Source: Patescibacteria group bacterium
GTDB lineage: Bacteria > Patescibacteriota > Minisyncoccia > Minisyncoccales > PEYH01
Reading direction: 5' to 3'
DNA length: 62,875 bases
Assembly: GCA_018900835.1 (NCBI GenBank)
Contig: JAHIFQ010000014.1
Coordinates: forward strand, 1-62,875
Part shown: piece after piece, positions 27,642-53,022 of the stretch
How positions within the stretch are numbered: the first letter of the stretch is position 1
Layout: each line of letters opens with the position of its first letter
Made by a program: the position numbers and the translations under genes
Notes under the pieces: model-generated
Databases searched by the model: none
What the model was told of the DNA's origin: nothing
The model's input: the letters and a program-made list of their open reading frames with translations, nothing else

Positions 27642-27648
27642 GTAATAC

Positions 27649-35851: not shown

Positions 35852-36853
35852 ATGCCTAAAGTATTTAAAATTATATTTTTTATTTTTTTGACTCTCATAG
35901 TCGGCATATTCGTGTTTTTGTTTGTGGGTAAAGCCACTCCGGCCGAGAACATTACTTGGGGAGTTGTGTTCTCCCAAAAACACGCCGAGCTTCTTGGACT
36001 GGACTGGAAAGCCAACTATCTTGCGATTTTAGACGATTTACAGATTAAAGACCTAAAATTAATCGCTTACTGGGATTTAATAGAAAAAGAGCCTGGAGTT
36101 TTTGATTTTACTGATTTGGATTGGCAGATTGAGGAGGCAGAGAAAGGGGGCGCAGAAGTCCTTTTGGTCATTGGCAAAAAAGTTCCAAGATGGCCTGAAT
36201 GCCATATTCCAGATTGGGCCAAGAGCATGGGAGAAGAAGAATTAGAAGAAAGCATTTTATTGTATTTGGAGCAGTTAATTTTAAAGTACAGAGATTATCC
36301 TGCAATTAAAATGTGGCAAGTTGAAAATGAGCCCTTTTTCCCATTTGGCGAGAATTGTCCATTAATAACAGAAGAATTTTTAGACAAGGAAGTCGGGCTT
36401 GTTAGGGCGCTTGATTATAACAAAAGGCCCATAGTAATTAGCGAGAGCGGGGAATTCCCTTTTTGGTTCAAGGCCGCAAGGCACGGCGATATTGTTGGGC
36501 ATACCCTTTACAGAGTTGTATGGGCAAGCGGTTTCAAAATTTATTTTAGACCGCCGTTTCCAGCTATTTTTTATAATAGAAAATCTTGGTTGATAGATAA
36601 GTTTTTTGATAAAAAAGTTATTTGCGTTGAGCTTCAGGCAGAGCCGTGGGGCCCGACCTTGTTATACGATTCTCCCTTAGAAGAACAGGAAAAATCCGTA
36701 AATTTTCAGAAATTGAAAGGAATAATCCAATTTGCCAAAAATACTGGAACAGATACTTTCTATTTTTGGGGGTCAGAGTGGTGGTATTGGATGAAAGAAA
36801 AACAAAACCAGCCCGAAATCTGGGATGAAATAAAAAATTTGTTATTGCAGTAA
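35852..36853 (+). CDS. Membrane-anchored glycoside hydrolase, clan GH-A (beta/alpha)8-like
   Basis: N-terminal TM helix. WQVENEPFF (NEP acid/base) and VISESGE candidate nucleophile. Confidence 0.55.
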   Translation: MPKVFKIIFFIFLTLIVGIFVFLFVGKATPAENITWGVVFSQKHAELLGLDWKANYLAILDDLQIKDLKLIAYWDLIEKEPGVFDFTDLDWQIEEAEKGGAEVLLVIGKKVPRWPECHIPDWAKSMGEEELEESILLYLEQLILKYRDYPAIKMWQVENEPFFPFGENCPLITEEFLDKEVGLVRALDYNKRPIVISESGEFPFWFKAARHGDIVGHTLYRVVWASGFKIYFRPPFPAIFYNRKSWLIDKFFDKKVICVELQAEPWGPTLLYDSPLEEQEKSVNFQKLKGIIQFAKNTGTDTFYFWGSEWWYWMKEKQNQPEIWDEIKNLLLQ

Positions 36854-36997
36854 TGTTTCCAAGCAAGATTTCATAGCGTTTTCCATCTCGTTTTCTTAAT
36901 AAAACTTTTAGTGTCTTTTTTCTCCATCTCAATTATTTAATAAAATTTCATAGCGTTTTATAACGCGATTTTTTAATAAAATTAAGCATTTCAGGAA

Positions 36998-37108
36998 ATT
37001 ACGAGGCCGGGCCTCGTAATTTTCGTAAAACGCCGGAACCCATACCAGTATTGAGGAATCTCACAACCCGCCCGGGGCGGGTAATTTTTGGGGGAGAGTT
37101 ATCCACAG
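36998..37108 (+). repeat. Dual-hairpin REP-like element copy (b), ends in TTATCCACA
   Basis: attacgaggccgggcctcgtaat...cccgcccggggcgggtaatttttgggggagagttatccacag. Confidence 0.9.
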
Positions 37109-37254
37109 CCCTGAAAAGCTTTTTTAGGGTTTTATAAAATTCATTTTAGGGCGTTGTCGAATCCTTCTTTTTGGCATCGAGAAGCTATTAAACCGCCATG
37201 ATTTATTTGACAACGATTTTAGAAAGTATCAAAATAATATATACCCAAAAAATT

Positions 37255-37641
37255 ATGATAATCAATCCTAAAAAATTATTGAAAAGCTTCCGAGTTGCTT
37301 TTATCGGTCTTCGCATAGGGATTAAAGAGGAGAATACTGTGAGAATCGGAGTAATCATTGCACTAATAGTGGTCTTTTTTATGCTCTATTTCCCGCTTGC
37401 TTTGCAGGAAAGAGCGATAATAACTTTGTGCGTTTTCTTGGTCCTGAGTATTGAGTTAATGAATACTCAAGTAGAAAGAGTAACTAATTTGATAGATAAA
37501 AATCATAATGACGAAATCAGGAAAATCAAAGACCTGGCAGCTGGCGCAGTATTAATGGCCATCATTGGCGCTGGTACAGTGGGAGCATATATTTTTCTGC
37601 CATATATTGTCAGAGCAATATCATCTTTATTTAACCATTAA
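37255..37641 (+). CDS. dgkA: Diacylglycerol/undecaprenol kinase (DgkA family)
   Basis: Start set at MIINPKKLLKSF. ELMNTQVERV and DLAAGAVL motifs. The ORF could extend back to 37198. Confidence 0.75.
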   Translation: MIINPKKLLKSFRVAFIGLRIGIKEENTVRIGVIIALIVVFFMLYFPLALQERAIITLCVFLVLSIELMNTQVERVTNLIDKNHNDEIRKIKDLAAGAVLMAIIGAGTVGAYIFLPYIVRAISSLFNH

Positions 37642-37693
37642 TTAAATCAGCCGTTGAAAGCAATAAAAAAAACTGAAATGGCTGGTCAATAAA

Positions 37694-39070
37694 ATGGAGG
37701 AAAATGAAAATAATAATTTCTGGAAAAGCAAAAATCCTGTAAAAGATAATTTTAGTTTTCCAAAAATAAATTTGGGCAAACTTAAAGGAATTGCAAAAAA
37801 TAAAGGCAAAATAAAAGCCACGCCGGGATTTTTGGCTGTCTTGATAATTCTTGTGGCCATTGTCGCTGGTGGCGCAGGCGCTGTTTTTACTAATTATTAT
37901 TGGCAGAATCAGGTTATTGATATTTTTGAACAGCAAGGTATTCCTATTATCAGTAAAGGCGCGACAATTCAAAATAACTATATCCCCCAGACAACCCAGG
38001 AGCAGAAGATTATAAAAGCAGTCAAGGATTATTCTCCAGCAGTTGTGAGTATTGTTATCAGCAAAGATGTCCCGATTCTTGAAAAATACTATATTGACCC
38101 TTTTGGCGGATTAAACTGGCCGTTTGGCGCTGATTTTCTTGTTCCACAATATCGCGAAAACGGTACAGAGAAACAACAGGTTGGCGGTGGCACTGGATTT
38201 ATTATTTCTTCAGACGGCACAATTCTAACAAATAAACATGTTACTCTTGAAGAGGATGCGGAATACACAGTTTTTTTCAATGATGGTTCAAAATATCCTG
38301 CTAAAATTTTAGCAAAAGACCCGTTCTATGATTTGGCAGTGCTTAAAGTTGACCAATCAGATACTCCTGAAGCAGAGAGAAAAACATTTCCTACTGTGAA
38401 ATTAGGCGACTCTTCCAGTTTACAAATAGGGCAAACAGTAATAGCAATTGGATATGCTTTAGGAGAATTCCAAAACACTGTCTCTGTTGGAGTTGTTTCT
38501 GGATTAGGCAGAAACATCACAGCTACTGGCGGACAAGGTTTTAGCGAAAATTTGGAAGGTATTATCCAAACAGACGCTGCAATTAATCCGGGAAATTCCG
38601 GCGGTCCGCTTTTGAATCTTGCTGGCGAGGTAATTGGAATTAATGTTGCCCGTTCTTCCAGTGGAGAGAATATTGGTTTTAGTTTACCTATCAATATGGC
38701 AAAGAGAGATATTGACCAAGTCAAAAAAACAGGGACAATTGTTTATCCATGGCTGGGCATCTCTTACACTATAATTACCAAAGAAATCAGCGAGGCAAAT
38801 AATTTATCTGTTGATTACGGGGCATGGATTGGCAAGGATTCTTTAGGTAAAGACACAGAAATAGCTGTTGTTTCCGGCAGTCCGGCTGCCAAATTAGGGA
38901 TTAAGAAAAACGATATTATTTTGGAATTCAATGGCGTTAAAATTACTTCAGAGAATCCATTGGCAAAGATTATCTTGGATTATAACCCGAATGATTCTGT
39001 AAATCTCAAAATCTTGAGAGACAAAGAGGACATAACTCTTACAGTTATACTTGGCGAAAGAAAGGAGTAA
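37694..39070 (+). CDS. htrA: HtrA/DegP-family serine protease with PDZ domain
   Basis: Catalytic triad contexts TNKHV, YDLAVLKV, GNSGGPL. C-terminal PDZ domain. Confidence 0.9.
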   Translation: MEENENNNFWKSKNPVKDNFSFPKINLGKLKGIAKNKGKIKATPGFLAVLIILVAIVAGGAGAVFTNYYWQNQVIDIFEQQGIPIISKGATIQNNYIPQTTQEQKIIKAVKDYSPAVVSIVISKDVPILEKYYIDPFGGLNWPFGADFLVPQYRENGTEKQQVGGGTGFIISSDGTILTNKHVTLEEDAEYTVFFNDGSKYPAKILAKDPFYDLAVLKVDQSDTPEAERKTFPTVKLGDSSSLQIGQTVIAIGYALGEFQNTVSVGVVSGLGRNITATGGQGFSENLEGIIQTDAAINPGNSGGPLLNLAGEVIGINVARSSSGENIGFSLPINMAKRDIDQVKKTGTIVYPWLGISYTIITKEISEANNLSVDYGAWIGKDSLGKDTEIAVVSGSPAAKLGIKKNDIILEFNGVKITSENPLAKIILDYNPNDSVNLKILRDKEDITLTVILGERKE

Positions 39071-39174
39071 AAACAAAAAATTTCTGATAATTGGCCTTTT
39101 TAAGGTTGACTTTTGGTGTTTTTTGAGCTTAAATTAAGAGAATGAACAGGAATTTAAATTAATTATTTTAACTT

Positions 39175-41862
39175 ATGTTTGCAAATCCTGGTGGAGATTT
39201 TACACAAAGAGCTCAACAAGCCATTTTGATGGCACAGTCATTAGCTCGAAAAGAAAATCAGCAGCAGATTGACGCGCTGCATCTTTTGTATTCTTTGGTT
39301 AGCCAAGAAGACACGATAGTGTTTACTATTTTGCGTAAGCTAAAGATTGCTGTTCCTGATTTAAAGAATAAAATACTTAAGGCGATTAAATTAAGAAAGA
39401 ATCTGCCAAATCTTGACGATTTTGAAGACCAGCCAATGGGACTCCAGTTTTATTTAACCCAGGACTTGGCAGCAGTTCTTGATAGGGCGAGAAAAGAATC
39501 AATCAGGATGAAAGACCAATTTATTTCAGTGGAGCATCTTTTCCTTGCTTTGCTCGAAGTTGTTTCCGAAGCAAAAAATATCTTGTCTTTTTATGGTTCA
39601 GTAGGCCTTGATTATAATGCTATTTTGAAACTTTTATCAGAGATAAGGGGCGGGGAGAATATCACTGACCCAGACCCAGAGTCAAAATATCAAGTGATTG
39701 AAAAATATTGTAAAAATCTCACTAAATTGGCTGAAGAAGGAAAGCTTGACCCGGTGATTGGCAGAGAGAATGAAATTAAAAGGGTAATTCAAATTCTTTC
39801 CAGGCGGACAAAAAATAATCCGGTTTTAATAGGCGAGGCAGGCGTTGGCAAAACAGCTATTGTTGAGGGCTTGGCGCAAAGGATTATAAAAGGGGATGCT
39901 CCGGAGAGTTTGAAGAATAAAGAGATTATTGCCCTTGATTTAGGCCTTTTGATTGCAGGAACAAAATTTCGCGGAGAGTTTGAACAAAGAATGAAAGCGC
40001 TTTTAAGGGAAATTGAACGCGCCAAAGACCGGTATTTTCTTTTTATAGACGAGCTTCATACTGTTATGGGAGCAGGAGCGGCAGAGGGTGCGATTGACGC
40101 TTCTAATTTATTGAAACCAGCGCTTAGCCGCGGGCAATTGAGAGCAGTCGGGGCAACCACTTTGAAAGAGTATCAGAAATACATTGAAAGAGACCCAGCT
40201 CTTGAAAGAAGATTTATGCCTGTATTTGTTGTTGAGCCGAGCATAGAAGATACAATTGCGATCTTAAGAGGCATTAAGAAGAAATACGAGCTTTATCACG
40301 GCGTGAAAATAAGGGATTCTGCGTTGATTGCTGCTGCCGAACTTTCTGCCAGATATATTGCAGATAGATTTTTGCCTGATAAAGCAGTGGATTTAATGGA
40401 CGAAGCCGCCTCTGGGTTGCGCTTGGAAATGGAATCAGAGCCAGCAGAAGTGGAGGAAGTGAAGAAAGAAATGCAACGGTTGACCATTGAAAAAGAGGCA
40501 TTAAAAAATGAGCAGGATTCTGCTTCAAAAAGGAGATTGTCTGTTTGCCTCCGGGCATTGGCTGACTTGAAAGAAAAAGAGAAAGCCCTGGAGATGAAAT
40601 GGAAAATAGAGAAGGACTTAATTCAGGTTTTGAAAGTTTTAAAAACAGATAATGAAAGATTGGATTTTGAGGCCGAGGTGGCGGAGCGCGAAGGGGATTT
40701 GGAAAAAGTAGCGCGTATTAAATACGGATTGATACCGAATGTTCTAAAAGAGATTCAGAAAAAAGAACAGGAGCTTACAAATTTTAGAAAAAAGAATCAG
40801 GTTTTAAAAGAAGATGTCGGGGAAGAAGATATTGCCCGAGTGGTTTCGCGTTGGACAGGGATTCCAGCTACCAATTTATTAGAAGAAGAGGCTAAAAAGT
40901 TGGTAAGAATGGAAGGTTCTATTTCTCGCAGGGTAATAGGTCAAGAACAGGCGATAGAAGCTATTTCTAATGCCATTAGGCGCAGTCGGGCAGGGATTGC
41001 AGAAGAGAATAGGCCACTTGGTTCGTTCATATTTTTAGGTCCCACTGGCGTCGGAAAAACCGAGACAGCCAAGGCATTAGCAGAGTTTTTATTTAATGAC
41101 GAGAACGCCTTGATTCGTTTGGATATGTCAGAATATATGGAACGCCACAGCATATCTAAGATGATTGGTTCGCCTCCGGGCTATGTCGGATATGAAGAAG
41201 CTGGACAGCTCACAGAGAAAATAAGGAGAAGGCCTTATAGTGTTTTACTTTTGGATGAAATAGAAAAAGCTCATCCAGAGGTTTTTAATATTTTGCTTCA
41301 AATTTTAGAGGACGGACGGCTCACTGACGCAAAAGGCAGACCTGTCTCGTTCAAAAATACTATTATTATTATGACTTCTAATCTTGGTTCGGAATATATT
41401 GCCAAAATGGGCACAATGGGCTTTATAAATGATGATAAGGAAGAATATCAAACCTTGAAGGACAGGGTTAATGAGGCATTGAAAGAAAGTTTCAGGCCAG
41501 AGTTTTTGAACAGGGTTGATGAGACGATTATCTTTAATTATCTTAGTAAAAGTCAGATTCAGGAAATTGTTGTGCTTGAGCTTGCCAAGGTTTCAAAACG
41601 GCTTGAGAGAAAAGGGATAAAATTGAGAGCAGACAAGGAAGTAAAAGAATTATTGGCGGAAAAGGGATTTGATATGAATTTGGGAGCCCGGCCATTAAAA
41701 AGGGTAATCCAGAAATTTATTCTTGACCCGCTTTCCTTGAAAATTGTGATTGGGGAAACAAAACAAGGGGAGACAGTTAATTTGACCGCAAAAGCAGGGA
41801 AAATCATTTTTAATTCTTTAAGACCATTGTCAAAGAAAAGAGAAGGAGTTAGAATAAAATAA
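39175..41862 (+). CDS. clpB: ClpB disaggregase
   Basis: 895 aa. Walker A GEAGVGKT and GPTGVGKT, with a long middle coiled coil. Confidence 0.97.
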
Positions 41863-42195
41863 TTGAGTTTAGGTTTGAGAATCTGAAGGACTCGGATTTT
41901 TTGGCCTGAACTCAAGAATCTTGAGTGATGGAATCTCTGTATGGGAGGTGATTGACTTCGAAGAGGAGTTGATAGAGGTAGAGAGCATAGACAAGAGGTG
42001 ATGCACAATGATTGTCTCGGTTTCAGGATTTACATAGCAGGACTCGGTGTTACGAGAATCTTCTACTCGACCATTATCGGGGCGCCTACGGCGCCCCGAA
42101 AGGAAAACTCAATCGTTCTTTGACAACCTCATCGCTTTCTCATATGCATATCTCCGAGAACTATCTTGTAGAGTCATCTCCGAGAAACCCGCCAA

Positions 42196-42227
42196 GAGGC
42201 AGACCCCTGCCTCTATTTTCTTTTTTT
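42196..42227 (+). terminator. Intrinsic terminator closing the clpB 3' non-coding block
   Basis: GAGGCAG-ACCC-CTGCCTC followed by TATTTTCTTTTTTT. Confidence 0.7.
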
Positions 42228-42274
42228 AATATAAAATCTGCCGAGATCGTTTCTCGGCAAAACTTAAAAGAGTA

Positions 42275-42385
42275 ATTACGAGGCCGGGCCTCGTAATTTT
42301 CGTGAAATGGCGGAAGCCATACCAGTATTGAGGATTCTCACAACCCGCCCAGGGCGGGTAATTTTTGGGGGAAAGTTATCCACAG
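42275..42385 (+). repeat. Dual-hairpin REP-like element copy (c), ends in TTATCCACA
   Basis: 111 nt, 110/111 identical to copy (e). Lies 46 nt upstream of the Y1 transposase gene. Confidence 0.92.
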
Positions 42386-42430
42386 GGTATTAATTATTAA
42401 AAATACTCTATTATAGGGTATTATATATGT

Positions 42431-43141
42431 ATGCCGAGAAGAAAAACCGAATTAATTAATGGTGAATTTTACCATATTATAGAGCGAGGAAATGATAGGC
42501 GCAAAATTTTTTTAGATAATGAAGATCGCCTTCGTTTTGTTAATAGTTTATTGGTTTTTAACGACACAGCGCCATCGCCTTGGCAATCTCGCGCTTTTTG
42601 GAAAAAACAGAAAGAATTGTTAAAAATGGACTATAAACCCAAAAATCCATTAGTCGAAATTCATGCGTTTGCTCTCATGGATAATCATTTTCATATCCTT
42701 GTCCGCCAGTTGACGGAAAATGGCATAACAAATTACACAAGAAAACTCGGCGGTTATGCGTATTATTTTAATAAAAAACACAAAAGAACAGGATCTCTTT
42801 TTGAGGGAAGATTCAGGGCTAAGCTTATTCAGACAGAAGTGCAATTAAGAAATAATTTTGTTTATATAAAAACGAATCCGGTTGAGATGGTGGAACCAGA
42901 ATGGAAATCTTGGAAAGTTGTAGATTCTAAACAGGCCACAGATTTTTTAGAAAAAGATTATCGCTGGTCAAGCTACTGGGATTATTTGGGAAAAAATAAT
43001 TTTTCATCTTTAGTTAAAAAAGATTTTTTCTTGAAATTGTTTGATGGAGAACAAAATATTCAGAAGGAAATAAATTCTTGGATATCATCTAAATCAAGTG
43101 TTTTTTCCAGAGGAATGGACAAAGTAGATTTCTTAGAATAA
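42431..43141 (+). CDS. rayT: Y1/HUH tyrosine transposase, IS200-like / REP-associated (RAYT-like)
   Basis: 236 aa. HUH motif DNHFHILV and catalytic-Tyr context NNFVYIKTNPVE. Flanked on both sides by the 111-nt element. Confidence 0.8.
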   Translation: MPRRKTELINGEFYHIIERGNDRRKIFLDNEDRLRFVNSLLVFNDTAPSPWQSRAFWKKQKELLKMDYKPKNPLVEIHAFALMDNHFHILVRQLTENGITNYTRKLGGYAYYFNKKHKRTGSLFEGRFRAKLIQTEVQLRNNFVYIKTNPVEMVEPEWKSWKVVDSKQATDFLEKDYRWSSYWDYLGKNNFSSLVKKDFFLKLFDGEQNIQKEINSWISSKSSVFSRGMDKVDFLE

Positions 43142-43219
43142 TTTATTTCATTTTTCAGAATAATTCATTTTTAATATTTTTTAGAGTAATTTTGGCTCAA
43201 AATTTATTCAATTTTTACG

Positions 43220-43330
43220 ATTACGAGGCCGGGCCTCGTAATTTTCGTGAAATGGCGGAAGTCACGCCAGTATTGAGGATTCTCACAACCCGCCCTGGGC
43301 GGGTAATTTTTGGGGGAAAGTTATCCACAG
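43220..43330 (+). repeat. Dual-hairpin REP-like element copy (d), ends in TTATCCACA
   Basis: 111 nt, 108/111 identical to copy (e). Lies 78 nt downstream of the transposase stop. Confidence 0.92.
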
Positions 43331-43382
43331 ATGTTTTGATGTTTTTATTTGGTTTAATCCATAAAATGCTTTACAATTTTTT

Positions 43383-43448
43383 AATATCCTTCTTTAATAT
43401 CCTTCTTTAATATCTTTTTTTAATATCCTTCTTTAATATCCTTATTTT
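43383..43448 (+). repeat. Five tandem AT-rich 13-mers (aatatccttcttt)
   Basis: Read directly. Ends 10 nt before the ATG at 43459. Confidence 0.9.
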
Positions 43449-43458
43449 AATTAAAATT

Positions 43459-44067
43459 ATGAAAAAGAAATTTTATCTTTTTATTGTTTTGGGGATTTTT
43501 ACTTTAGCCATAATTGGCGTTTTATTGTATTGGGGCTTGAGTGAGGACAAAAATAGGGTGACGCCAGGAGTTAAATTTGAAGCGCCGAAATATTATGTTA
43601 TAAAAGACGGGCCAGATGGCAAGATTGTGGAAAACAAACATGCTGGAATAACTTTCAAAGCGCCAGAAGGATGGAATGTTGAGAAAAAAGAAATAGGGTC
43701 GGATGAGTGGATAGTGAATTTTACTAGTCCAGACGCAACAGTGAGTGAGTCCGGGCTTTTGACGGGTGGTTGTGGGATTAGTGCCTTAATAGAATATCAT
43801 GAAGCAACATTTCGGAGCGTTGTTGATAGAATCAACGATCCAGATAGGTACTCTAAAGAGATATCAGGCAATTATGAGGTTATTAATATAGATGGACACC
43901 AAGCACTTAAAAGAACATTGGACCGTCCAGAATGGGGAATGGCAGTCATGATTCAATTGCCTTTTCAGGACAAGATATTTTCATTTGATACCTTGTTTCT
44001 TCCGAGTGAAGGACAGAGATGTTCTAGCTTGATTGATGAATTTTTGGCAGAAATCTCAATTATTTGA
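43459..44067 (+). CDS. Hypothetical membrane-anchored or secreted protein
   Basis: 202 aa with an N-terminal hydrophobic helix. No recognisable family. Confidence 0.5.
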   Translation: MKKKFYLFIVLGIFTLAIIGVLLYWGLSEDKNRVTPGVKFEAPKYYVIKDGPDGKIVENKHAGITFKAPEGWNVEKKEIGSDEWIVNFTSPDATVSESGLLTGGCGISALIEYHEATFRSVVDRINDPDRYSKEISGNYEVINIDGHQALKRTLDRPEWGMAVMIQLPFQDKIFSFDTLFLPSEGQRCSSLIDEFLAEISII

Positions 44068-44085
44068 TAAATTTTGAGGGAGGAT

Positions 44086-47000
44086 ATGAAAAAAATATAT
44101 TTCTCATTAATTTTTTTAATTTTATTATTAGGAAGTTTTTTATTTAGACCATTATCTATATTTGCGATTGATAATAAAGAATTGACGCAAGAGGAATTAG
44201 ATTCATATATTAAATTAAGCGACACAGACAGAAGAGACATATTGAATACCTTGCCGCAGGTCTTTACTGAAGAATGGATGGACTCTATTGTCCGCGTTGC
44301 GATACCAGAGAAAGAGGCCATAAGTCTTATTATAAGACAAGCGGTCAGGGGGCACATGAGGGATTATTTATTAATTGAGGGACCAAGGGATGTTGGAATA
44401 GAAATTGTAAAATTAGGGTTTAAAATCGGGCAAATGTTTTTGACGAAAAATATTAGTATTAGTGATTTAATCAGCGAATTAGAGAAACTAACAATTAAAG
44501 AATCAGTAAATTATTTGAGCCAATGGCTTAAAGAAAAAGAAATCAAAATAGCAACAGGAAATCTGGATTTTTCCTATGATAATTTTCAAAACAAAAAAGA
44601 AAAACATCAATTTCAATATATTATTCTGTATTCTCCAGAAACCGATGATACTGGGGAAATGGTGATAAAGATTTTTTCTTCTGAACAAATGAGTGCGCCT
44701 GGCTCTTTTGGATCTTTTGCTGGTGGATGGGGAACCGCTTGGAATTATACTAATGAATATGCGCAGGGCAAGAAAATTGCCCCTTTTATTTTAACAATAC
44801 GCGGAGAAATGGAGAGAGCGCGCGTTGGATACTGGCAAAGCGAAATTACTCATAATTATTCTTGGAAATATCAGCCCGAAATTGAACTTGAGTTTCCTCG
44901 CACTGTTCCGTATTTTGATTTTCGCGAAAAAGGATTTTTTGAAAAGCTCGGAGACCAAATCAAAGAATTTTTTGGAAGAATAGGCGACCTTTTCTCTGGG
45001 GCTTCGTTGACAGGAGTTCCTGATATAGAAAAGAATCAAGATGGGACAATAGATTTGTCCGCGGACAGCGCATTAGGTAAATTTATTGCCAATATACTGG
45101 AACAATTTCGCGCTTTCAGGTCTCTTCTTGGGCAAGCTCAGCTTGATGCTTTAGAAAATCAGGTTCAAGACACAATGACAGAGGATGATTTATTAGCGCT
45201 TTTGGAAAAAATTGAATCTTTACAAGCGCAATTGGCTGCAATGGGAGAGAAAATTAATCTTTTACAGGCCGGAGTGGGAACATCTTCGGACACGACAGAG
45301 CTTAATCCCGCGCAAAACCAGCAAACCAAACAAAATATTTTGATAAATGAGGTTTGCGCTGGCATCAACAATTCTCAAAACGAATTTATTGAAATTTATA
45401 ACCCGAATAATACGCCAATTGATATAAGCGATGATAGTTTTCAACTTCAATTAGTAAGTTCAAGCGACAATGTGACAAAGAAAAAGATTACCTGGACCAA
45501 GAATATTATTCCGGCAAAAGGATATTTTCTCCTGATAGGCGGGGAATTGATAATTAATAATGAGAAAATTCAGGGAGATGCAGTGTTCAGTAGTCAATTG
45601 ACGAGTGTGAGTGGAATTATTCTTTCAGACAAAGAGGGGAATATTTTGGATAAAGTAAGCTGGGGAAGTCCAGAAAAATCACCGCCACAGTCCGCTGTAG
45701 AAAAGCGGGGGAAAATATTACAAAAAGGACTTGAGACCAATAATAGCTTAGAGCGTTCTAACTACATTGACACTAATAATAATTCTGCAGATTTTTCGCT
45801 CAATGAATCGCCTTCACCAGCCAATTCTTTGGGAGAGGAATTTATTTACACCATTCAAGGACAAGGTGGCAATGGCAATGGCGATGATGGCGATGGTGAT
45901 GGCGAAGAAGAGGATGGTCAGTCCGAAAACTCTGACCAACAGCAGAATATTTCTGGCGGAGGCAGCTCTAATAGGCCTATTTGTTCACAGGATAGATTGG
46001 ATAGCCCTGCCAATTCCCCGATTATCATTAACGAGATTGCGTGGATGGGAAGTGAGGCAGGATACATTAATGAATGGATTGAGTTGAAAAATATTTCCGA
46101 TTCTGCAATAAATTTAGAAAATTGGCAACTTTTGGATAAAGCAGAGAACATCCGTATTACATTCAGCGCGAATCACGCCATCCCTGCCCACGGATTTTAT
46201 CTTTTGGAGCGAAGCGACGATGAAGTTGTGCCGAGCGTAAGCGCTGATGTCATTTATACTGGCGCTTTAGCTAATAGCAACGAGAGTTTGCGTCTATTTA
46301 ACAGTAATTGCGATTTAATTGACGAGGTAATGGCAAGCCCGGATTGGTCTGCTGGAGATAACGACACAAAACAGACAATGGAAAGAGGAGATGACCTGTT
46401 GTGGCATGATTATAGCGGACAAGGAAGCGACGGGATTATGGGAACGCCGAGGGCGGAAAATAGCGAAATTATTATTAACAACCAAGGTGAAAATAATGAA
46501 GATGAAGAGGACGATGGAGATGATGGAGATGATGAAGATGAAGAGGACGATGGAGATGATGAAGATGATGAAGATGATGGAAGCGGTGATGATTCAGTTT
46601 CCGCTATAGGATTGGTTATTTCTGAAGTTAGAGCTGCTGGTATTGAAGAATTTATTGAGATCTATAATCCGCTTGAGCAAGAGATTTCTCTTGTTGGGTT
46701 TTATTTCAGTTATTTTTCCGCTGGCCGCGATTGGAATAATCCATTTTTAAACAAAGAGTTTCCGACAAGCACACCTGTGATTGGCGCAAAAGAATATTTT
46801 CTAATAGGATTGGGCGATTATTTAGAAGAAGAATCGGATTGGAAGCCGAATCAAACCAATTTAAGTAGCGACAATGGCGCTGTTGCTTTATTCTCTTGCG
46901 ACCCAAGTCAGGCAACCACTACTCAAATGGCAATAGATTGCAAAATTGACGCTGTTGGCTGGGGCGAACCGCTTGTTTTTGAAACACAGGCAGCAACGAG

Positions 47001-48807
47001 CTCAAGCGATAAAAGTTTGGCGCGGAAATTATCTCCAGACGAAAATGGTTATTTACGATATATAGATACTGATGATAATTATAATGATTTTGAAGAACAG
47101 GAATCTACTCCTAAACAGCAGAACCAATCTGCTTATTCTGATTTAGATAACGATGGCATAATAGATGAGTATGACCCTGTGACAGAAATTTCAAGTGATA
47201 TAATTCTTCCTGCAGGAGAGTATATATTCAAGGACTTGGTTATTATTCAAGGATTCGGCTTGTTCGCTGGTTCAGATATTTTATTGGAAGGGTTTAAGGG
47301 AGTTAAGATAACAGCAGACAATATTAATATTAATGAAGACGCTGGCATTTTTGCCGACAATAATGGCTATGCTTCAGACCAAGGACCTGGAGTAAGTATC
47401 GCAAGCCAGACAGGAGCAAGCCATGGAGGAGTTGGAGGAAGGAATGAAGGTGATCCGAAACTATTTATTTATGGAGATTTAGAATTTCCTATTGAACCAG
47501 GGTCTGGGGCTTTAGGCAATCCTGAAGTTCCGCGCTTAAGTCCGTATCGGCCAGGAGGAGCAGGCGGAGGAGCTATTGTTTTAGATGTTCAAGGAGAGTT
47601 GTTGAATAATGGTTTTATCTCGGCCAATGGAGAGGACGGACTCCCTCATGTTACAAGTTATGCTTCCACTGGCGCTGGAAGTGGCGGTTCTGTTTATATA
47701 ACAACAAGCGTCTTATCAGGGACAGGCATTGTTAGGGTAAATGGCGGCGGGTCTTCGCGTAGCTCCGGGGCTGGCGGAGGCGGAAGAATTGCGGTCTATT
47801 ATGATACGAATAATTTTGCTGGGAATATTCAAGCATTCGGCGGAGAGGATGCTAATAATATTCTTAATGGAGGTCCGGGAACTGTTTTTATGAGTCAGGG
47901 AGAAATAGGAAATTTGGTTATTGATAATAATGCACGAGAGGGAGTGACAGCTTTGAGTAATGATAGTTATGTTTTTGGCGATATAATTGTTAGTGGAGGC
48001 GCAAATTTTTATCTGCCTGACCAGTTGAGTTGCGCGAATTTTGATGTTCAAAACAGCGCTGTTTTAATAGCAATAGATAATGCAACAATAAATATTAGTA
48101 ATGCGTTTAATTTAAATCAATCTCAACTTATTGGCGAAAACCAAAAAATCGTGACTATTGAAGGTAATGAAATCACATTAGTAGAGAGTGAAATCTTGGC
48201 AAATGTTTTTGTTCAAACCAACTCTTTGACAATAGATAGCGGTTCTGCGATTTTATCCACAGGCCTTGGTTATGTTTTTGAAGAAGGCCCTGGAGCTGGG
48301 ATTAATGCTTATGGTGGGAGTTATGGTGGATTGGGAGGCAGAAATTATGAATCATCCGGATTTGGACAACCATATGGGATTGAGGAAATGCCAGATGATT
48401 TTGGTTCGGGCGGAGGAAATGGAAACGAAGTTAGAAAAGGAGAGAGTGGCGGCGGGAAAATTATTATAATTAGCGTAGGCGAAATTGTTATTGACGGTGC
48501 GATTTCATCTAACGGTAATAATGGTCTTCCGCATATTACGAGCTATCCAGCGAGCGGAGCTGGAAGCGGAGGAACTATTTATCTTTCTGCCAGCGTTGTT
48601 AATGGTGTGGGTACTGTGTCTGCGAATGGAGGGTCAGCGTCTTCAATCGGTGGTGGAGGCGGAGGAGGAAGAATTGCGATTTATGGAAATATAGGTGGTT
48701 TTACTGGAATTATTGAGGCGCTTGGAGGAAAGAATTCAACAAATGCGTATTACGACGGAGAGGATGGAACAGTATTTTTGGGTTCTGGCGATTTTGAACC
48801 GAATTAA
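44086..48807 (+). CDS. Giant secreted/surface protein with three lamin-tail domains, acidic linkers and a duplicated Gly-rich beta-helix-like C-terminus
   Basis: Start at the ATG after the GGGAGG SD. LTD signatures INEVCAG...NEFIEIYNP, INEIAWMG...NEWIELKN, ISEVRAAGIEEFIEIYNP. D/E/G linkers, a DLDNDGIIDEYDP Ca-binding-like motif, and two GAGSGG...GGGGRIA(V/I)Y modules. Confidence 0.8.
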   Translation: MKKIYFSLIFLILLLGSFLFRPLSIFAIDNKELTQEELDSYIKLSDTDRRDILNTLPQVFTEEWMDSIVRVAIPEKEAISLIIRQAVRGHMRDYLLIEGPRDVGIEIVKLGFKIGQMFLTKNISISDLISELEKLTIKESVNYLSQWLKEKEIKIATGNLDFSYDNFQNKKEKHQFQYIILYSPETDDTGEMVIKIFSSEQMSAPGSFGSFAGGWGTAWNYTNEYAQGKKIAPFILTIRGEMERARVGYWQSEITHNYSWKYQPEIELEFPRTVPYFDFREKGFFEKLGDQIKEFFGRIGDLFSGASLTGVPDIEKNQDGTIDLSADSALGKFIANILEQFRAFRSLLGQAQLDALENQVQDTMTEDDLLALLEKIESLQAQLAAMGEKINLLQAGVGTSSDTTELNPAQNQQTKQNILINEVCAGINNSQNEFIEIYNPNNTPIDISDDSFQLQLVSSSDNVTKKKITWTKNIIPAKGYFLLIGGELIINNEKIQGDAVFSSQLTSVSGIILSDKEGNILDKVSWGSPEKSPPQSAVEKRGKILQKGLETNNSLERSNYIDTNNNSADFSLNESPSPANSLGEEFIYTIQGQGGNGNGDDGDGDGEEEDGQSENSDQQQNISGGGSSNRPICSQDRLDSPANSPIIINEIAWMGSEAGYINEWIELKNISDSAINLENWQLLDKAENIRITFSANHAIPAHGFYLLERSDDEVVPSVSADVIYTGALANSNESLRLFNSNCDLIDEVMASPDWSAGDNDTKQTMERGDDLLWHDYSGQGSDGIMGTPRAENSEIIINNQGENNEDEEDDGDDGDDEDEEDDGDDEDDEDDGSGDDSVSAIGLVISEVRAAGIEEFIEIYNPLEQEISLVGFYFSYFSAGRDWNNPFLNKEFPTSTPVIGAKEYFLIGLGDYLEEESDWKPNQTNLSSDNGAVALFSCDPSQATTTQMAIDCKIDAVGWGEPLVFETQAATSSSDKSLARKLSPDENGYLRYIDTDDNYNDFEEQESTPKQQNQSAYSDLDNDGIIDEYDPVTEISSDIILPAGEYIFKDLVIIQGFGLFAGSDILLEGFKGVKITADNININEDAGIFADNNGYASDQGPGVSIASQTGASHGGVGGRNEGDPKLFIYGDLEFPIEPGSGALGNPEVPRLSPYRPGGAGGGAIVLDVQGELLNNGFISANGEDGLPHVTSYASTGAGSGGSVYITTSVLSGTGIVRVNGGGSSRSSGAGGGGRIAVYYDTNNFAGNIQAFGGEDANNILNGGPGTVFMSQGEIGNLVIDNNAREGVTALSNDSYVFGDIIVSGGANFYLPDQLSCANFDVQNSAVLIAIDNATINISNAFNLNQSQLIGENQKIVTIEGNEITLVESEILANVFVQTNSLTIDSGSAILSTGLGYVFEEGPGAGINAYGGSYGGLGGRNYESSGFGQPYGIEEMPDDFGSGGGNGNEVRKGESGGGKIIIISVGEIVIDGAISSNGNNGLPHITSYPASGAGSGGTIYLSASVVNGVGTVSANGGSASSIGGGGGGGRIAIYGNIGGFTGIIEALGGKNSTNAYYDGEDGTVFLGSGDFEPN

Positions 48808-48838
48808 ACGACCAAATTAAACAATCGACTAAAAACAA

Positions 48839-48949
48839 ATTACGAGGCCGGGCCTCGTAATTTTCGTGAAATGGCGGAAGCCATACCAGTATTGAGGATT
48901 CTCACAACCCGCCCTGGGCGGGTAATTTTTGGGGGAAAGTTATCCACAG
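48839..48949 (+). repeat. Dual-hairpin REP-like element copy (e), ends in TTATCCACA
   Basis: 111 nt, 31 nt after the giant gene stop. Confidence 0.92.
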
Positions 48950-49089
48950 GGGTAGATGGCGAGTTTTAAAATTTTTGGACTTGTAATTTTTAATTTTGGA
49001 ATTTTTGACATTGTAATTTTTTGGGTCAGCATCTTTGCCTCATACAATATTCGCTTTTTTATATTATCTTTGTTAGAATAATATTTACT

Positions 49090-50199
49090 ATGAATACAGA
49101 TAATCTTAAACCAGAATATGTCATCACAGTTACAGATTCCAATATCGGGATGGAGGGTTATTTAGTTATTGATAATACTTTATTAGGACCTGGGAAGGGT
49201 GGAATAAGGATGACGCCAGAAGTTACATTAGAGGAGGTTGCTAGATTGGCCAGAGTAATGACTTGGAAAAATGCTTTAGCTGGAATACCTTTTGGCGGCG
49301 CAAAAGCTGGTATCAAATGGAATGGCGGTCCTGATGAATTAAAAAAACAATTTATAGAGAGTTTTGCGAAAAAGATTAAAATGTTTATTCCGAATCTATA
49401 TATTGCAGGACCAGATGTGAATACTGGAGAAAAGGAAATGAAATGGTTTATTGAAGCCACTGGAATATTTAAGTCAGCAACTGGTAAGCCAATCACTTGT
49501 TGCGAGGGTGTAGGTTGCGGCATTCCTCACGAAGTTGGAAGTACTGGCTTTGGCGTAGCTCAAGCAACTAAGGTTGCGGCAAGCATCTTGGGTATTGATA
49601 TTAAAGGAGCTACTGTTTCTATCCATGGTTTTGGAAATGTTGGTACTTTTGTATATAAGTTTTTGACAGAAATGGGAGCCAAGATTATAGCCATAGCAGA
49701 CAAAGATACTGTGCTTTATTCACAAGATGGTTTTGAGCATAATCTAATAAATGAAATTATAGATAAAAAACAAGGACTGATTGATTATGCTGGAAAAGCA
49801 GAAAGATTATCGCATGAGAAATTTTGGAAAATTCCAGTAGACATTATGATCCCAGCATCAGTGACAGATGTGATTCATAAAGGAAATAAGGATGATATAA
49901 GAACTAAAATGATAATAGAAGGGGCTAATATTCCTATGACTGAAGAAATAGAAGAAGAGTTAGGACAAAGAGGAATATTGGTGGTTCCAGATTTTGTTGC
50001 TAATGCAGGAGGAGTTATTTCCTCTTATTCAGAACATGCTGGCCATAGCATAGAAGAAATGTTTGAATCTGTAAGAGAAAAGATAACTAATATTACTCAA
50101 AGCGTATGTGAAAGTTGTTTAAAATATAAACATAATCCTCGAAAAGTTGCCTTAAGTATTGCGCAAGAAAGATTGAAGCAATGTAATAAAGAACTGTAA
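49090..50199 (+). CDS. gdh: Glutamate (Glu/Leu/Phe/Val family) dehydrogenase
   Basis: Start at MNTDNLKPEY. GPGKGGIRM catalytic Lys region and GFGNVG dinucleotide fold. Confidence 0.9.
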   Translation: MNTDNLKPEYVITVTDSNIGMEGYLVIDNTLLGPGKGGIRMTPEVTLEEVARLARVMTWKNALAGIPFGGAKAGIKWNGGPDELKKQFIESFAKKIKMFIPNLYIAGPDVNTGEKEMKWFIEATGIFKSATGKPITCCEGVGCGIPHEVGSTGFGVAQATKVAASILGIDIKGATVSIHGFGNVGTFVYKFLTEMGAKIIAIADKDTVLYSQDGFEHNLINEIIDKKQGLIDYAGKAERLSHEKFWKIPVDIMIPASVTDVIHKGNKDDIRTKMIIEGANIPMTEEIEEELGQRGILVVPDFVANAGGVISSYSEHAGHSIEEMFESVREKITNITQSVCESCLKYKHNPRKVALSIAQERLKQCNKEL

Positions 50200-50337
50200 C
50201 CCGCCCGGGGCGGGTAATTTTTATCTGTAACGAGGCCGGGCCTCGTAATTTTCGTGAAATGGCGGAAGCCATACCAGTATTGAGGATTCTCACAACCCGC
50301 CCTGGGCGGGTAATTTTTGGGGAAAAGTTATCCACAG
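50200..50337 (+). repeat. Solo hairpin-2 unit plus dual-hairpin REP-like element copy (f), ends in TTATCCACA
   Basis: cccgcccggggcgggtaattttt abuts the gdh stop. A full copy follows (taacgaggccgggcctcgtaat...gttatccacag). Confidence 0.88.
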
Positions 50338-50466
50338 CCATTTTTTCGTCATTTTTTCGTAATTCTTTCTAATTTTTTCGTAATTCTTTCGATCGTTTTA
50401 ATTAAGATAAAATTTGCTCCAGTTCTGCCGAGATCATTTCTCGGCAAGATTGTTTTTATAAAATTG

Positions 50467-50494
50467 TTGACTTTGGATGATATGTGAGTAATAT
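50467..50494 (+). promoter_or_regulatory. Putative sigma70-type promoter of the orphan gene
   Basis: TTGACT-N16-TAATAT, about 50 nt upstream of a strong AAGGAGG SD. Confidence 0.45.
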
Positions 50495-50545
50495 GACAAT
50501 TACAATAAGATTTTCAAAAATTTCATTGTACCAAAAGGAGGAAAG

Positions 50546-50929
50546 ATGTTAGGAAAGAGAGTTTTTTTAGCGAATGATACTATGAGGGGTAGGCCAAGCG
50601 AGAGAGTTTCTCTTCGGTTCGATATGAAGGATACTATTGATCTTGCTTGCGATTGCGTATATCCTGCACAGGTTTACCATCGCCCCAAGGAATTGAGAGT
50701 ACTCAAGTCGATCGAGGTAAGAGTTGGCGATAATGTCTGGCAACCATACCCAACTATTTCCTGGCTCGATGGGGTCGAGCGCCCTAAACAGCTCGTTACA
50801 AAATCTGTAGTGGTGACTAAAGAAGGAAAGCCATTAGTAGTCAGCACTCAAAACGGAAAGCTGGACGAGACGCTGACAAGAGAAGCGGAGAAAGAAGGAG
50901 TCTGCGTTGAATATCTTGACGGATTGTGA
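50546..50929 (+). CDS. Hypothetical 127-aa protein, GC-richer than its surroundings
   Basis: AAGGAGGAAAG SD 3 nt before the ATG, with its own promoter and terminator. No recognisable family. Confidence 0.55.
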   Translation: MLGKRVFLANDTMRGRPSERVSLRFDMKDTIDLACDCVYPAQVYHRPKELRVLKSIEVRVGDNVWQPYPTISWLDGVERPKQLVTKSVVVTKEGKPLVVSTQNGKLDETLTREAEKEGVCVEYLDGL

Positions 50930-50962
50930 CCTATTACAAATCTGTCTTGGCATCTTGATGCC

Positions 50963-51006
50963 AACGCCTTCTGTGGTCCTCGGACCTCGGAAGGCGTTTT
51001 CTTTTA
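50963..51006 (+). terminator. Intrinsic terminator
   Basis: AACGCCTTC-N18-GAAGGCGTT followed by TTCTTTT. Confidence 0.7.
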
Positions 51007-51112
51007 GTTAAAAAATTTCTCTGTCCGCATTGTCCATTGCCTCAAAATCCAAAAGGTCTTTACAAAAACTTAAAATTGAGTAAAGTAAAGAAAGATAATT
51101 TAACATAAAAAT

Positions 51113-51694
51113 ATGGAGCTTGCTATGTTTCAACAAAGGAGAGGAGTTTTTACAATGGTCTTAGTAGTAGTGTTTGTGTTGGCAGTGGCTTCTACTTTTG
51201 TTTTTCTTAGATTCTCGGGAAAGCTCGCAGAATATAAGATAAATATGTTTTCCAGCATAGGCACAGATAATCTTGTCTTTAATGAGAGCGAGCAAGCAGA
51301 TGAGAAAGAGGATGCGTTTTCCATAGGCATCATTGATAATGGCGCGGAAGAAATCAGTAATATAGATAGTGGCAACGATATCCCTCTTATTATTTCCGCA
51401 GGAAAGAAATATGAAGAGGTTGCCAAAAGCGGAGATGGGATTACACATCTTGCACGAAGGGCTTTAAGAGAATATTTGGATGGAAGTTCGGTCAATCTTA
51501 ACGCAGAGCAAAAGATATTTTGCGAGGACTATATTCAGAATCGCATTGGCGAGAAAGAGATTAAAATAGGGGAAAGTATTGCAATTTCAGAGGATTTAAT
51601 AGCAGAGGCAGTGAATAAATCATTGGGATTGAGCGCAAGTGAGCTTGAAAACCTGAAGAATTTTACAGAATTGGTTTGGGACGCTGATTTCTGA
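51113..51694 (+). CDS. Hypothetical membrane-anchored protein
   Basis: 193 aa with an N-terminal TM helix and an acidic extracytoplasmic part. Confidence 0.5.
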   Translation: MELAMFQQRRGVFTMVLVVVFVLAVASTFVFLRFSGKLAEYKINMFSSIGTDNLVFNESEQADEKEDAFSIGIIDNGAEEISNIDSGNDIPLIISAGKKYEEVAKSGDGITHLARRALREYLDGSSVNLNAEQKIFCEDYIQNRIGEKEIKIGESIAISEDLIAEAVNKSLGLSASELENLKNFTELVWDADF

Positions 51695-51723
51695 ACTTAT
51701 TGAATACCTTTTATTTTTTAACT

Positions 51724-52350
51724 ATGTTCTACAAGGAGGACACTATAAGATTAACAGTTGCTGTGTATCAGGTGACTGGGATTTTTCCTGAAAATGAGCC
51801 CTTAATAGCTCAAATCAGGCAAAAAGCTAATAATGTTTTAGCTGATTTTATCTGTCTGCGGATGAATCCGGGCAACAAAAAAAATATCAGCAAAGGAATT
51901 GAGGTGCTTTTTGCCTATTTTTCCATAGCTGAAAAGCAGAACTGGATTGATAGCAAGAATTTTTTGGTTTTAAGGCGAGAATATAGCAAAATATTGGATT
52001 TTATAAGGAGTTTGCCTGAAAATCCTGTGAAAATAGCAAGAAAAGAAGTAAAAATAATTGAGAAAACGAGTTATCCACAGGTAACTGTGGATAAGAGAGT
52101 GGATAAACAGGTGGATAAGAAACAGGAAAACAGAAATGTTAGCAGGGCTTCGTCTAATCCTTCTGTAAGGCAAAAACAGGTTTTAGAATTGATTAAAACT
52201 AAGAATCAGCTTTCTTTGTCAGAAATCAAGAGTATGTTTTCTTCCTTAAGTTCCAGAACATTGCGTCGGGACTTGAGTTCATTGGTTGATAAGGGGGCAA
52301 TAGACAGAATCAGGGAGGGCAGAGATGATGTTTTATATGTTTTAAAATGA
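51724..52350 (+). CDS. Four-helix-bundle (23S-IVS-protein-like) N-domain fused to a DeoR-like winged HTH
   Basis: C-terminal LSLSEIKSMFSSLSSRTLRRDLSSLVDKGAI. The linker VDKRVDKQVDKK is encoded by a DnaA-box array. The start could be 51700 (TTG). Confidence 0.55.
   Translation: MFYKEDTIRLTVAVYQVTGIFPENEPLIAQIRQKANNVLADFICLRMNPGNKKNISKGIEVLFAYFSIAEKQNWIDSKNFLVLRREYSKILDFIRSLPENPVKIARKEVKIIEKTSYPQVTVDKRVDKQVDKKQENRNVSRASSNPSVRQKQVLELIKTKNQLSLSEIKSMFSSLSSRTLRRDLSSLVDKGAIDRIREGRDDVLYVLK
52071..52118. promoter_or_regulatory. Array of four DnaA-box-like 9-mers inside a CDS, including a perfect inverted pair
   Basis: TTATCCACAG-GTAA-CTGTGGATAA (52071-52094), then GTGGATAA at 52099 and 52111 with 12-nt spacing. 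Confidence 0.6.
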
Positions 52351-52387
52351 AATTGGATTGCGGACAGATGTCGGACATAAAATATAG

Positions 52388-52418
52388 TTGTCCACAATGT
52401 GTCCACAAGTTATCCACA
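52388..52418 (+). promoter_or_regulatory. Three same-orientation DnaA-box-like sites at 11-nt spacing upstream of the sigma factor gene
   Basis: TTGTCCACA (52388), GTGTCCACA (52399), TTATCCACA (52410). Ends 34 nt before the ATG at 52452. Confidence 0.55.
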
Positions 52419-52451
52419 TGTCCAGAAAATTATCCGGGCATTATTGTTTAA

Positions 52452-52955: not shown

Positions 52956-52956
52956 A

Positions 52957-53022
52957 ATTTTCAATTTCCAATTTCCAAGTTTCAATTTCCAAGTTTCAAG
53001 TTTTCAATTTACAATTTACAAC
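52957..53022 (+). repeat. T-rich heptanucleotide satellite (ttcaatt/tccaagt units)
   Basis: About 9 imperfect 7-nt units, read directly. Confidence 0.85.

Follow-up and report, generated by a model that had tools for sequence, protein, structure and literature searches.

What is a lone transposase-like gene, set between two copies of a dispersed repeat, doing in the genome of a member of the Patescibacteria? The locus that raises this question lies in a 62,875-nucleotide (nt) stretch of DNA (contig JAHIFQ010000014.1; hereafter the window, meaning the whole of the stretch analysed), in which a gene for a 236-amino-acid (aa) protein with the motifs of a Y1/HUH nuclease is bracketed by two copies of an element of about 111 nt. 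Repetitive extragenic palindromes (REPs) and the REP-associated tyrosine transposases (RAYTs) are the classic example of a transposase that has been domesticated and has a population of repeats of its own within the genome; most of what has been described of them comes from Proteobacteria, Cyanobacteria and Bacteroidetes. Where a RAYT gene (encoding TnpAREP) is itself flanked by REPs, as reportedly happens with Escherichia coli yafM and in Pseudomonas (Nunvar 2010; Ton-Hoang 2012; Bertels 2011/2017; Quentin 2018), the unit is called a REPtron. We think it probable that the locus described here is a REPtron-like unit of a family widespread in Patescibacteria, encoding a single-stranded DNA (ssDNA) endonuclease/ligase that would act on its cognate hairpins, and that the hairpins belong to modules which the host puts to use as well. 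The unit comprises three features:

42431-43141, + strand: RAYT-like class-2 Y1/HUH gene, 236 aa, with the HUH motif at H86/H88 and the predicted catalytic tyrosine, Y145, in YIKTNP.
42275-42387, + strand: copy c of the element, the upstream flank of the Y1 gene (hairpin 1, 42274-42298; hairpin 4 with T-run, 42343-42366; DnaA box, 42376-42384).
43220-43332, + strand: copy d, the downstream flank, in direct orientation (hairpin 1, 43220-43242; hairpin 4 with T-run, 43288-43311; DnaA box, 43321-43329).

The outline of the unit had been proposed in a preliminary description of the window. The 236-aa open reading frame (ORF) with its HUH (HFH) and YIKTNP motifs is indeed present, and its bracketing by direct copies of ~111 nt, each with a DnaA box, is confirmed, copies c and d being 96.4% identical over 111 nt. 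Between the end of copy c and the ATG there are 44 nt, and 78 nt separate the stop codon from the start of copy d. In all four close lineages the full module lies on both sides of the gene, again in direct orientation. At 62%, 59% and 40% identity the flanks are simpler: each has a single palindrome or a pair, particular to the lineage, and then TTTTCCACAGG, TTATCCACAGG, TTATGCACA or AAGTTATCCACAGGG.

The association extends well beyond these relatives. A distant set of 80 loci from GTDB (31-47% identity) provided 74 genes with complete flanks, and co-occurrence was tested on loci of up to 20 kb by asking whether each end of the gene had the same palindrome no more than 150 nt away, with ORFs of at least 150 aa from the same loci as controls. 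The same palindrome was found on both flanks of 41 of the 74 homologues, as against 6 of 552 control ORFs (odds ratio 113, Fisher p=2e-37). The palindromes vary by lineage around a common core, AGG-N5-CCT, and at 17 of the distant loci more copies lie elsewhere within 20 kb. These data strongly support a REPtron-like association of gene and palindrome. The preliminary description had suggested a test of co-occurrence with the 111-nt repeat as such, and here the result is divided: gene and flanking palindrome do go together, but nhmmer searches with the 111-mer gave no match in the 80 distant GTDB loci nor in the loci at 56-62% identity, so that the whole element is confined to close relatives and the architecture alone is shared more widely.

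The gene itself contains an additional palindrome, with the reading frame kept, at 18 of the distant loci; the positions are about +125 to +206 nt or +465 to +490 nt. In the structural model these insertions map to surface loops (residues ~42-69 and ~155-163), the first being a loop with a low predicted local distance difference test score (pLDDT), and they account for the peptide inserts QRGPSSL, QRDPASL and TRPGLV seen in the protein alignment; TRPGLV is the translation of hairpin 1 of the window. In-frame REPs in tnpAREP genes have been called ‘a unique feature of subclass 2.4’, a group of Cyanobacteria and Bacteroidetes with GT[AG]G REPs (PMC6006769). The likeness lies in the in-frame palindromes in surface loops of the gene product; the present family, in contrast, belongs to the candidate phyla radiation (CPR) and its palindromes are not of the GTAG type.

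The main rival account would make the modules host punctuation cassettes, each combining an intrinsic terminator with a DnaA-box regulatory or titration site, with selection maintaining them and RecA-type gene conversion keeping them alike. Their spread would owe nothing to the Y1 protein, which would act perhaps on its own flanks only or in some other role on ssDNA. We regard this as unlikely. It leaves unexplained the excess of bracketed homologues over bracketed control ORFs, the change of palindrome with the lineage or paralogue of the gene and the presence of in-frame palindromes within it.

The protein carries the motifs NHFHIL (H86, H88) and YIKTNP (Y145, N149, P150), and these five residues are unchanged across an alignment of 30 homologues, among which a WSS motif about 30 residues past the tyrosine (RWSS in the window protein) is invariant or nearly so. 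Such invariance of the catalytic residues would imply an active nuclease with a conserved substrate, a further difficulty for cassettes in whose spread the protein has no part. The Y---NP arrangement is the signature of class-2 (TnpAREP-like) enzymes, and a conserved serine motif is found in several class-2 subclasses (Quentin et al. 2018; PMC6006769). A check against the Pfam Y1_Tnp profile (PF01797), suggested in the preliminary description, was passed narrowly by the 236-aa protein (23.2 bits, cut-off 23), and 30 of 30 family members match the profile, the best at 1.3e-11. When an AlphaFold (AF2) model of the protein (pLDDT 87) was searched against the PDB with Foldseek, the top match was 4ER8, E. 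coli TnpAREP with a bound REP hairpin (E=1.7e-6), with the TnpA proteins of IS608 (E=6e-4) and ISDra2 ranking below it. By its Y---NP motif and the best match of its modelled fold, the protein is a class-2 (RAYT-like) Y1/HUH enzyme. Homologues are numerous (909 clusters at 50% identity in a profile search at E<=1e-30, 12,079 at E<=1e-10), 225-265 aa in length and essentially all from Patescibacteria/CPR, in keeping with the CPR-like host that had been proposed, and their public annotation is only ‘transposase’ or ‘hypothetical’.

One candidate function for the C-terminal ~85 residues, that of a DnaA-domain-IV-like helix-turn-helix (HTH) reading the DnaA box, was dropped for lack of support. 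The Bac_DnaA_C and HTH families of Pfam (including HTH_23 and HTH_28) matched none of the 30 members at E<=10, and a profile of the C-terminal part retrieved nothing relevant from the PDB; modelled alone this part has a pLDDT of 58, and the full model has it packed against the core. A known class-2 group does have such a domain: subclass 2.1 (TIRYT) proteins have a C-terminal Bac_DnaA_C-like HTH and are associated with GGGG[AT][CG]A[CG] inverted repeats, with no DnaA boxes and no REPs (PMC6006769). That group and the present family share a class-2 Y1 enzyme linked to DnaA-type recognition, as well as a serine motif after the tyrosine, but the arrangement is mirrored here, where the boxes are in the DNA, the 30 members have no such domain and the flanks are direct.

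The Y1_Tnp domain also raises the possibility that copy c, the gene and copy d form an autonomous insertion sequence (IS) of the IS200/IS605 type, with c and d as subterminal hairpins and the other copies as derivatives resembling miniature inverted-repeat transposable elements. IS608 and ISDra2 TnpA are among the fold matches, and the flanking hairpins are direct, as are the left-end (LE) and right-end (RE) hairpins of IS608; indeed the IS200/IS605 elements share with this unit both the Y1/HUH fold and one-strand subterminal hairpins in direct orientation. However, those elements are multi-copy, mobile units, often accompanied by tnpB, while the Y1 gene is present once in the 62.9-kb window and occupies a single slot. 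Orthologues at 82-76% protein identity keep the order HtrA, ClpB, the gene, a 202-aa protein and a giant LTD-domain protein; the slot from ClpB to the LTD protein is held at 62% and 59% identity too (loci L117 and L118), and in a Minisyncoccales metagenome-assembled genome (L007, 40% identity) the gene sits in the same slot but flipped in place, the order and strand of its neighbours being unchanged. Between ClpB, the upstream neighbour, and the 202-aa protein there is no other ORF of at least 100 aa, and the 202-aa protein has no Pfam match at all, which argues that no TnpB-type domain is present. Both flanks are, moreover, complete modules like the solo copies rather than distinct ends, and the class-2 Y---NP motif and best fold match point to TnpAREP. 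RAYTs behave as resident, single-slot genes (PMC5581495), and a conserved syntenic slot occupied by a single copy is RAYT behaviour and not that of IS200. An autonomous IS is very improbable and was rejected on synteny and copy number.

Details of the L007 locus are of interest in their own right. The inverted gene (L007:9860-10780) lies between copies of TCTTTCGAGGYYSRRCCTCGAAAGA, with a third copy in frame at +169, and, as in the window, the module (a doublet plus AAGTTATCCACAGGG) is on the side facing the 202-aa gene.

Other members of the family are found elsewhere, in a pilus or ribosomal-protein cluster, and some genomes have two paralogues. L115 (9400-10320 and 15400-16300) and likewise L116 have a pair of paralogous Y1 genes, separated by 5 kb, in a type IV pilus/ligA region, each with its own type of flanking palindrome, ACGAGACCCGG(A/C)CTCGT and ACAGAGACCCGCTCTCTGT. 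In L114 (9950-10860) the RAYT-like gene has map on one side and a glycosyltransferase gene on the other, in a ribosomal-protein/secY/adk/infA cluster, and its called GTG start reads through the upstream palindrome (TRPGLV). The L114 unit is flanked by a ~46-nt direct repeat (ATTTGATTGGTAGAGAGAAATCTCTGCCAGTTTTGTTGTGAGAAGA) that looks like a duplication left by past insertion of the unit. This repeat, in the midst of a ribosomal-protein cluster, is in keeping with an IS, since it suggests at least one past insertion of the gene.

The element itself is present in the window as seven full copies of ~111 nt (starts 27551, 36999, 42276, 43221, 48840, 50228 and 53073), all on the + strand in the intergenic spaces between + strand genes. 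The repeat cannot be a product of chance, given the nhmmer E-values of the copies (7e-31 to 2e-38) and the excess of the hairpin-1 core ACGAGGCCNGGCCTCGT (6 occurrences in the window against 0.02 expected). The copies gather within ~15 kb of the Y1 gene, with none in the region 1-27 kb. In addition to copies c and d, the following are present:

27551-27657, + strand: copy a, upstream of greA; the most diverged copy, with its DnaA-box tail lost and hairpin 1 kept via compensatory/wobble changes.
36999-37108, + strand: copy b, upstream of a diacylglycerol kinase gene; orthologous to L081:3385-3494.
48840-48950, + strand: copy e, between the giant LTD-domain gene and a glutamate dehydrogenase gene; 99% identical to copy c.
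50228-50337, + strand: copy f, after the glutamate dehydrogenase gene.
53073-53183, + strand: copy g, after a sigma-70-family gene; orthologous copies in four relatives.
50199-50222, + strand: solo hairpin-4-type palindrome with T-run (ACCCGCCCGGGGCGGGTAATTTTT), directly upstream of copy f.

A lone variant of the hairpin-4-type palindrome (ACCCGCCCGAGGCGGGC) is found at 58982-58998, between the genes at 54482-58762 and 59024-61240. With the solo copy at 50199, it shows that this palindrome type occurs outside the 111-nt module too.

An alignment of 36 distinct copies from the window and related metagenome contigs defines the order of parts as palindrome 1, TTTT, a ~45-nt spacer, palindrome 2, AATTTTT, a G-run and (A/G)AG-TTATCCACA-G. 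Palindrome 1 is AATTACGAGGCC-G-GGCCTCGTAATT. The spacer has conserved blocks (CGGAA, CCAG and GGATTCTCAC), with neither conserved structure nor covariation among the aligned copies. In most relatives the two palindromes are identical in sequence; the window and one related sample have palindrome 2 swapped on both of its arms (ACCCGCCC-NGG-GGCGGGT), and in two further lineages other hairpin variants appear on both palindromes. A model of two local hairpins is strongly supported: it pairs 96.7% of cells and has 7 pairs with compensatory change, and the hairpin covariation score of 0.27 (0.088 in shuffles) was reached in none of 500 shuffles. Folding is better than in shuffled sequence, with z=-5.6 under DNA parameters and z=-3.75 under RNA parameters.

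Judged from this anatomy, the 111-mer is a mosaic in which two short REP-like palindromes are combined with a spacer and a tail bearing a DnaA box, and it resembles a bacterial interspersed mosaic element (BIME). The preliminary description had treated it as a REP-type flank: the palindromes are there, two of them, but the whole is not one long REP. As in the BIMEs/RIPs of E. coli, the mosaic is intergenic, with two REP-type palindromes, a conserved linker, a site for a host protein and the potential to act as terminator or punctuation. The sequences are unrelated, however, and the host site that some of the E. coli elements carry is for IHF and lies between the REPs, while here the site is a DnaA box of consensus sequence, placed 3' of palindrome 2; the ‘alternating orientation’ of BIMEs is meaningless here because the palindromes are fully symmetric. 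REPINs (Bertels & Rainey 2011) likewise have two REP copies per ~100-nt unit and a single-copy RAYT, but form one long inter-REP hairpin where the present element has two separate local ones. A REPIN-like long hairpin between the palindromes was rejected: it pairs 82.8% as against 96.7% for the local model, and hairpins 1 and 4 differ in the window.

Could the hairpins instead act as RNA, the element being a multi-copy structured small RNA or cis-regulatory leader? All copies are sense-oriented between genes, the RNA folds better than its shuffled counterparts and some copies tolerate G-U pairs. No Rfam family matches the element, though, and in its ~45-nt centre, as noted, neither conserved structure nor covariation is seen. 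As DNA the hairpins are perfect palindromes, the element folds better still with DNA parameters, and the link to an HUH DNA enzyme seen in the flank test would have no explanation. We consider an RNA function most improbable.

Hairpin 4 and its T-run in copies b to g head the list of terminator-like structures on the + strand (scan of 36800-53700), and in copy a, which is outside that scan, the same hairpin 4 is followed by AATTTTT. Each palindrome with its T-run resembles an intrinsic (Rho-independent) terminator for the upstream gene, and is probably used as such by the host.

How has the population of copies evolved? A pattern search of metagenomes found 28 stretches with the element. For copies b, c, d, e and g there is an element at the orthologous intergenic site in relatives, where the genes on either side have 72-85% nucleotide identity. 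Mean identity is 0.89 between different sites within a genome and 0.77 at the same orthologous site between genomes, these groups having been assigned partly by contig or sample names, with the window and the Ga0180007 contig as the certain single genomes. The nearest neighbour of most sited copies is in their own genome group (nearly all in the case of W, GC, GD and GE), and genome-specific hairpin variants are common to every copy of that genome. This pattern is concerted evolution. Something must be homogenising the copies, whether the Y1 enzyme, by copying or replacing them, or gene conversion from one repeat to another. The dispersal by a RAYT that had been proposed does not follow from it, most copies being at orthologous sites and the signal being one of homogenisation within genomes rather than of observed insertions.

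Much of this would be expected of host-maintained cassettes as well. The copies are intergenic and co-directional with the genes, end in a hairpin and T-run, and hold their positions between species. The DnaA box is at the universal consensus and recurs after unrelated palindromes in distant lineages. A repeat of 111 nt is long enough for homologous recombination. The segment between copies e and f also differs between relatives as deletion between direct repeats would make it. That segment (48952-51015, with the glutamate dehydrogenase gene, solo hairpin, copy f and a 127-aa ORF) was compared with L111, L104, L085/L098 and L118: in three relatives it is missing and a single element is found instead, while the more distant L118 has gdh at this position. 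Loss by recombination between direct copies of the element is consistent with this distribution.

Several observations weigh against the reading that we prefer, that of a REPtron-like unit whose enzyme acts on the dispersed modules. The partial assignment of genome groups by name is one. No clean pair of filled and empty sites, and no new insertion, was caught among the related contigs, and the occupancy of orthologous sites by copies b, c, d, e and g leaves mobility an inference; homologous recombination between 111-nt repeats could homogenise them too. The related contigs of 50-84 kb have 3 pattern matches each, nhmmer adding a fourth on one contig of 51.9 kb, so the family of elements is seemingly modest in size, and at many distant loci the palindrome lies only beside the gene. 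All copies are co-oriented with both the genes and the GC skew, which makes a replication-strand bias inseparable from a transcription bias. Lastly, the canonical marks of REP recognition are lacking. Canonical REPs have a guide tetranucleotide, GT[AG]G, on the 5' side of the hairpin foot, and E. coli TnpAREP contacts GTAG via W94, Q95 and R104 (PMC6006769). Neither the window (AATTACGAGG...) nor the relatives (TCCAAGG, TATCGAGG and similar) have a GT[AG]G guide at the foot of the hairpin, the family consensus LFQGRYKA has F-Q/E-G-R where, by comparison at the sequence level, E. coli has W94/Q95, and against the NCBIfam equivalog model REP_Tyr_transpos (NF047646) the protein scores 32.8 bits, below the cut-off of 80.

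As a REPtron, then, the unit qualifies by its association and class-2 motif and falls short of the canonical definition. The points of likeness are a vertically inherited class-2 Y1/HUH gene, single-copy in the window, with HUH and Y---NP motifs and 4ER8 as best match, and palindromes specific to a lineage or paralogue that flank the gene, occur elsewhere and evolve as a population; REPtron paralogues each have their own type of palindrome (PMC6006769). Apart from the guide, the score below the NCBIfam cut-off and the apparent replacement of the W/Q motif, the differences lie in the flanks, inverted in REPtrons but here direct and made of a 111-nt mosaic with a DnaA box, and in the hosts, mostly large genomes as against CPR genomes of ~1 Mb. 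Non-IS tnpAY1 genes have been found mainly in large genomes (Quentin et al.; PMC6006769), in a text that makes no mention of CPR, Parcubacteria or Patescibacteria. Literature searches found no published description of a RAYT or REPtron in CPR, nor of a REP combined with a DnaA box, in agreement with the claim to novelty in the preliminary description.

If the unit is REPtron-like in function as well, its substrate would likely be the lineage-specific palindrome, here ATTACGAGGCC-G-GGCCTCGTAAT, with the family core AGG-N5-CCT, recognised as a hairpin on single-stranded DNA. The lagging-strand template is the most plausible source of such DNA because all copies are on the G-rich + strand. The metal bound by the HUH motif and Tyr145 would cut beside the hairpin to form a 5'-phosphotyrosine intermediate, after which the ends would be rejoined. 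Cutting and rejoining of this sort could copy, replace or homogenise modules of ~111 nt composed of palindrome 1, AATTTT, a ~45-nt spacer, palindrome 2, AATTTTT, a G-run and AG-TTATCCACA-G. The modules would persist at fixed intergenic sites, where the host would also use them as terminators and DnaA sites.

The last of these uses is suggested by the tail of the element, which reads GGGGGAAAG-TTATCCACA-G (box-containing tail, GGGGGAAAGTTATCCACAG). Six of the seven window copies terminate in GTTATCCACAG and have the exact 9-mer TTATCCACA (TTWTNCACA), lost in copy a, and most copies in relatives have the exact 9-mer too. In E. coli the sites that are strongest for DnaA in vivo, those of oriC and datA, read gagTTATCCACAg (PMC11317965), and the context of the box in the element, (g/a)agTTATCCACAg, AAGTTATCCACAG, is the same as in those sites, the high-affinity context being gTTATCCACAg (PMC11317965). 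The tail is a predicted consensus high-affinity DnaA box ahead of the next gene, and the host probably uses it. The distant loci, 1.08 Mb in all, have 30 exact occurrences of TTATCCACA in the orientation of the gene and 16 in the opposite one, where our own estimate from composition gives ~6-7 per strand. In at least eight lineages the box lies directly 3' of that lineage's own palindrome, and its polarity and (R)AG...G context are then shared as well. That the box stays at the universal consensus while the hairpin drifts by lineage is most simply read as the box being recognised by host DnaA and not by the Y1 protein. Its role may be to regulate the downstream gene, to titrate DnaA or to help the DNA to melt for hairpin formation.

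A bolder proposal, which we think quite doubtful, would couple the two activities. Box, G-run, T-tract and extrudable palindrome would form one system in which DnaA melts the duplex and presents the hairpin to the Y1 enzyme, processing of the element being licensed by initiation potential and the enzyme in turn maintaining or homogenising a set of dispersed strong DnaA boxes. Were this true, the boxes could be datA-like titration or regulatory sites in tiny CPR genomes, and together a replication-control regulon maintained by a transposase.

Further DnaA boxes are found in the window outside the elements. Three are exact, at 52071 (+), 52086 (-) and 52410 (+), and three have one mismatch, at 52098 (-), 52110 (-) and 52388 (+); those at 52071 and 52086 form a perfect inverted repeat, TTATCCACAGTTACCTGTGGATAA. 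The cluster (52071-52118 and 52388-52418) is inside and just after a DeoR-HTH gene (51700-52350) and upstream of the sigma-factor gene, and by its sequence could be a DnaA-regulated or titration locus.

The wider significance of a REPtron-like family in Patescibacteria lies in finding the logic of RAYTs and REPs among the smallest and most streamlined of bacterial genomes, and with three unusual traits: palindromes without a GTAG guide, in-frame palindromes in the gene for the enzyme and a perfect DnaA box fixed to the repeat. Should the protein process the hairpins, the family would offer a tractable handle on CPR genome dynamics, natural co-evolved pairs of enzyme and hairpin for the study of HUH specificity, and a possible tie between repeat maintenance and replication control. 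It also calls for caution in annotation, as many CPR ‘transposases’ are probably resident, host-integrated genes and not active ISs.

Other repeats were seen in the window. Another palindrome family, TCTGCCGAGATC(G/A)TTTCTCGGCAA, is unrelated to the first and is present twice where 0.01 copies would be expected; one copy (42240-42258) is a little upstream of copy c and the other (50427-50445) ~90 nt downstream of copy f. Positions 42150-42190 contain related ‘CTCCGAGAA’ repeats, and L097:5599-5690 is followed by a similar tail. Short tandem repeats, AT-rich, with a period of 7-15 nt and differing by site, are found at 43380-43447, 48970-49021, 50340-50391, 52956-53021, 53187-53217 and 53414-53490; they adjoin elements d, e, f and g downstream (or g upstream), in the leader of the next gene, and similar arrays are present in a few other intergenic regions (at 2760, 3302, 3601, 16367 and 18619). 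Finally, a 74-nt tandem repeat (86% identity) that is unrelated to the element lies at 61891-62042; it starts with GGGGATGAAATCCCCC and has internal inverted repeat arms at 61901-61945 and 61998-62042.

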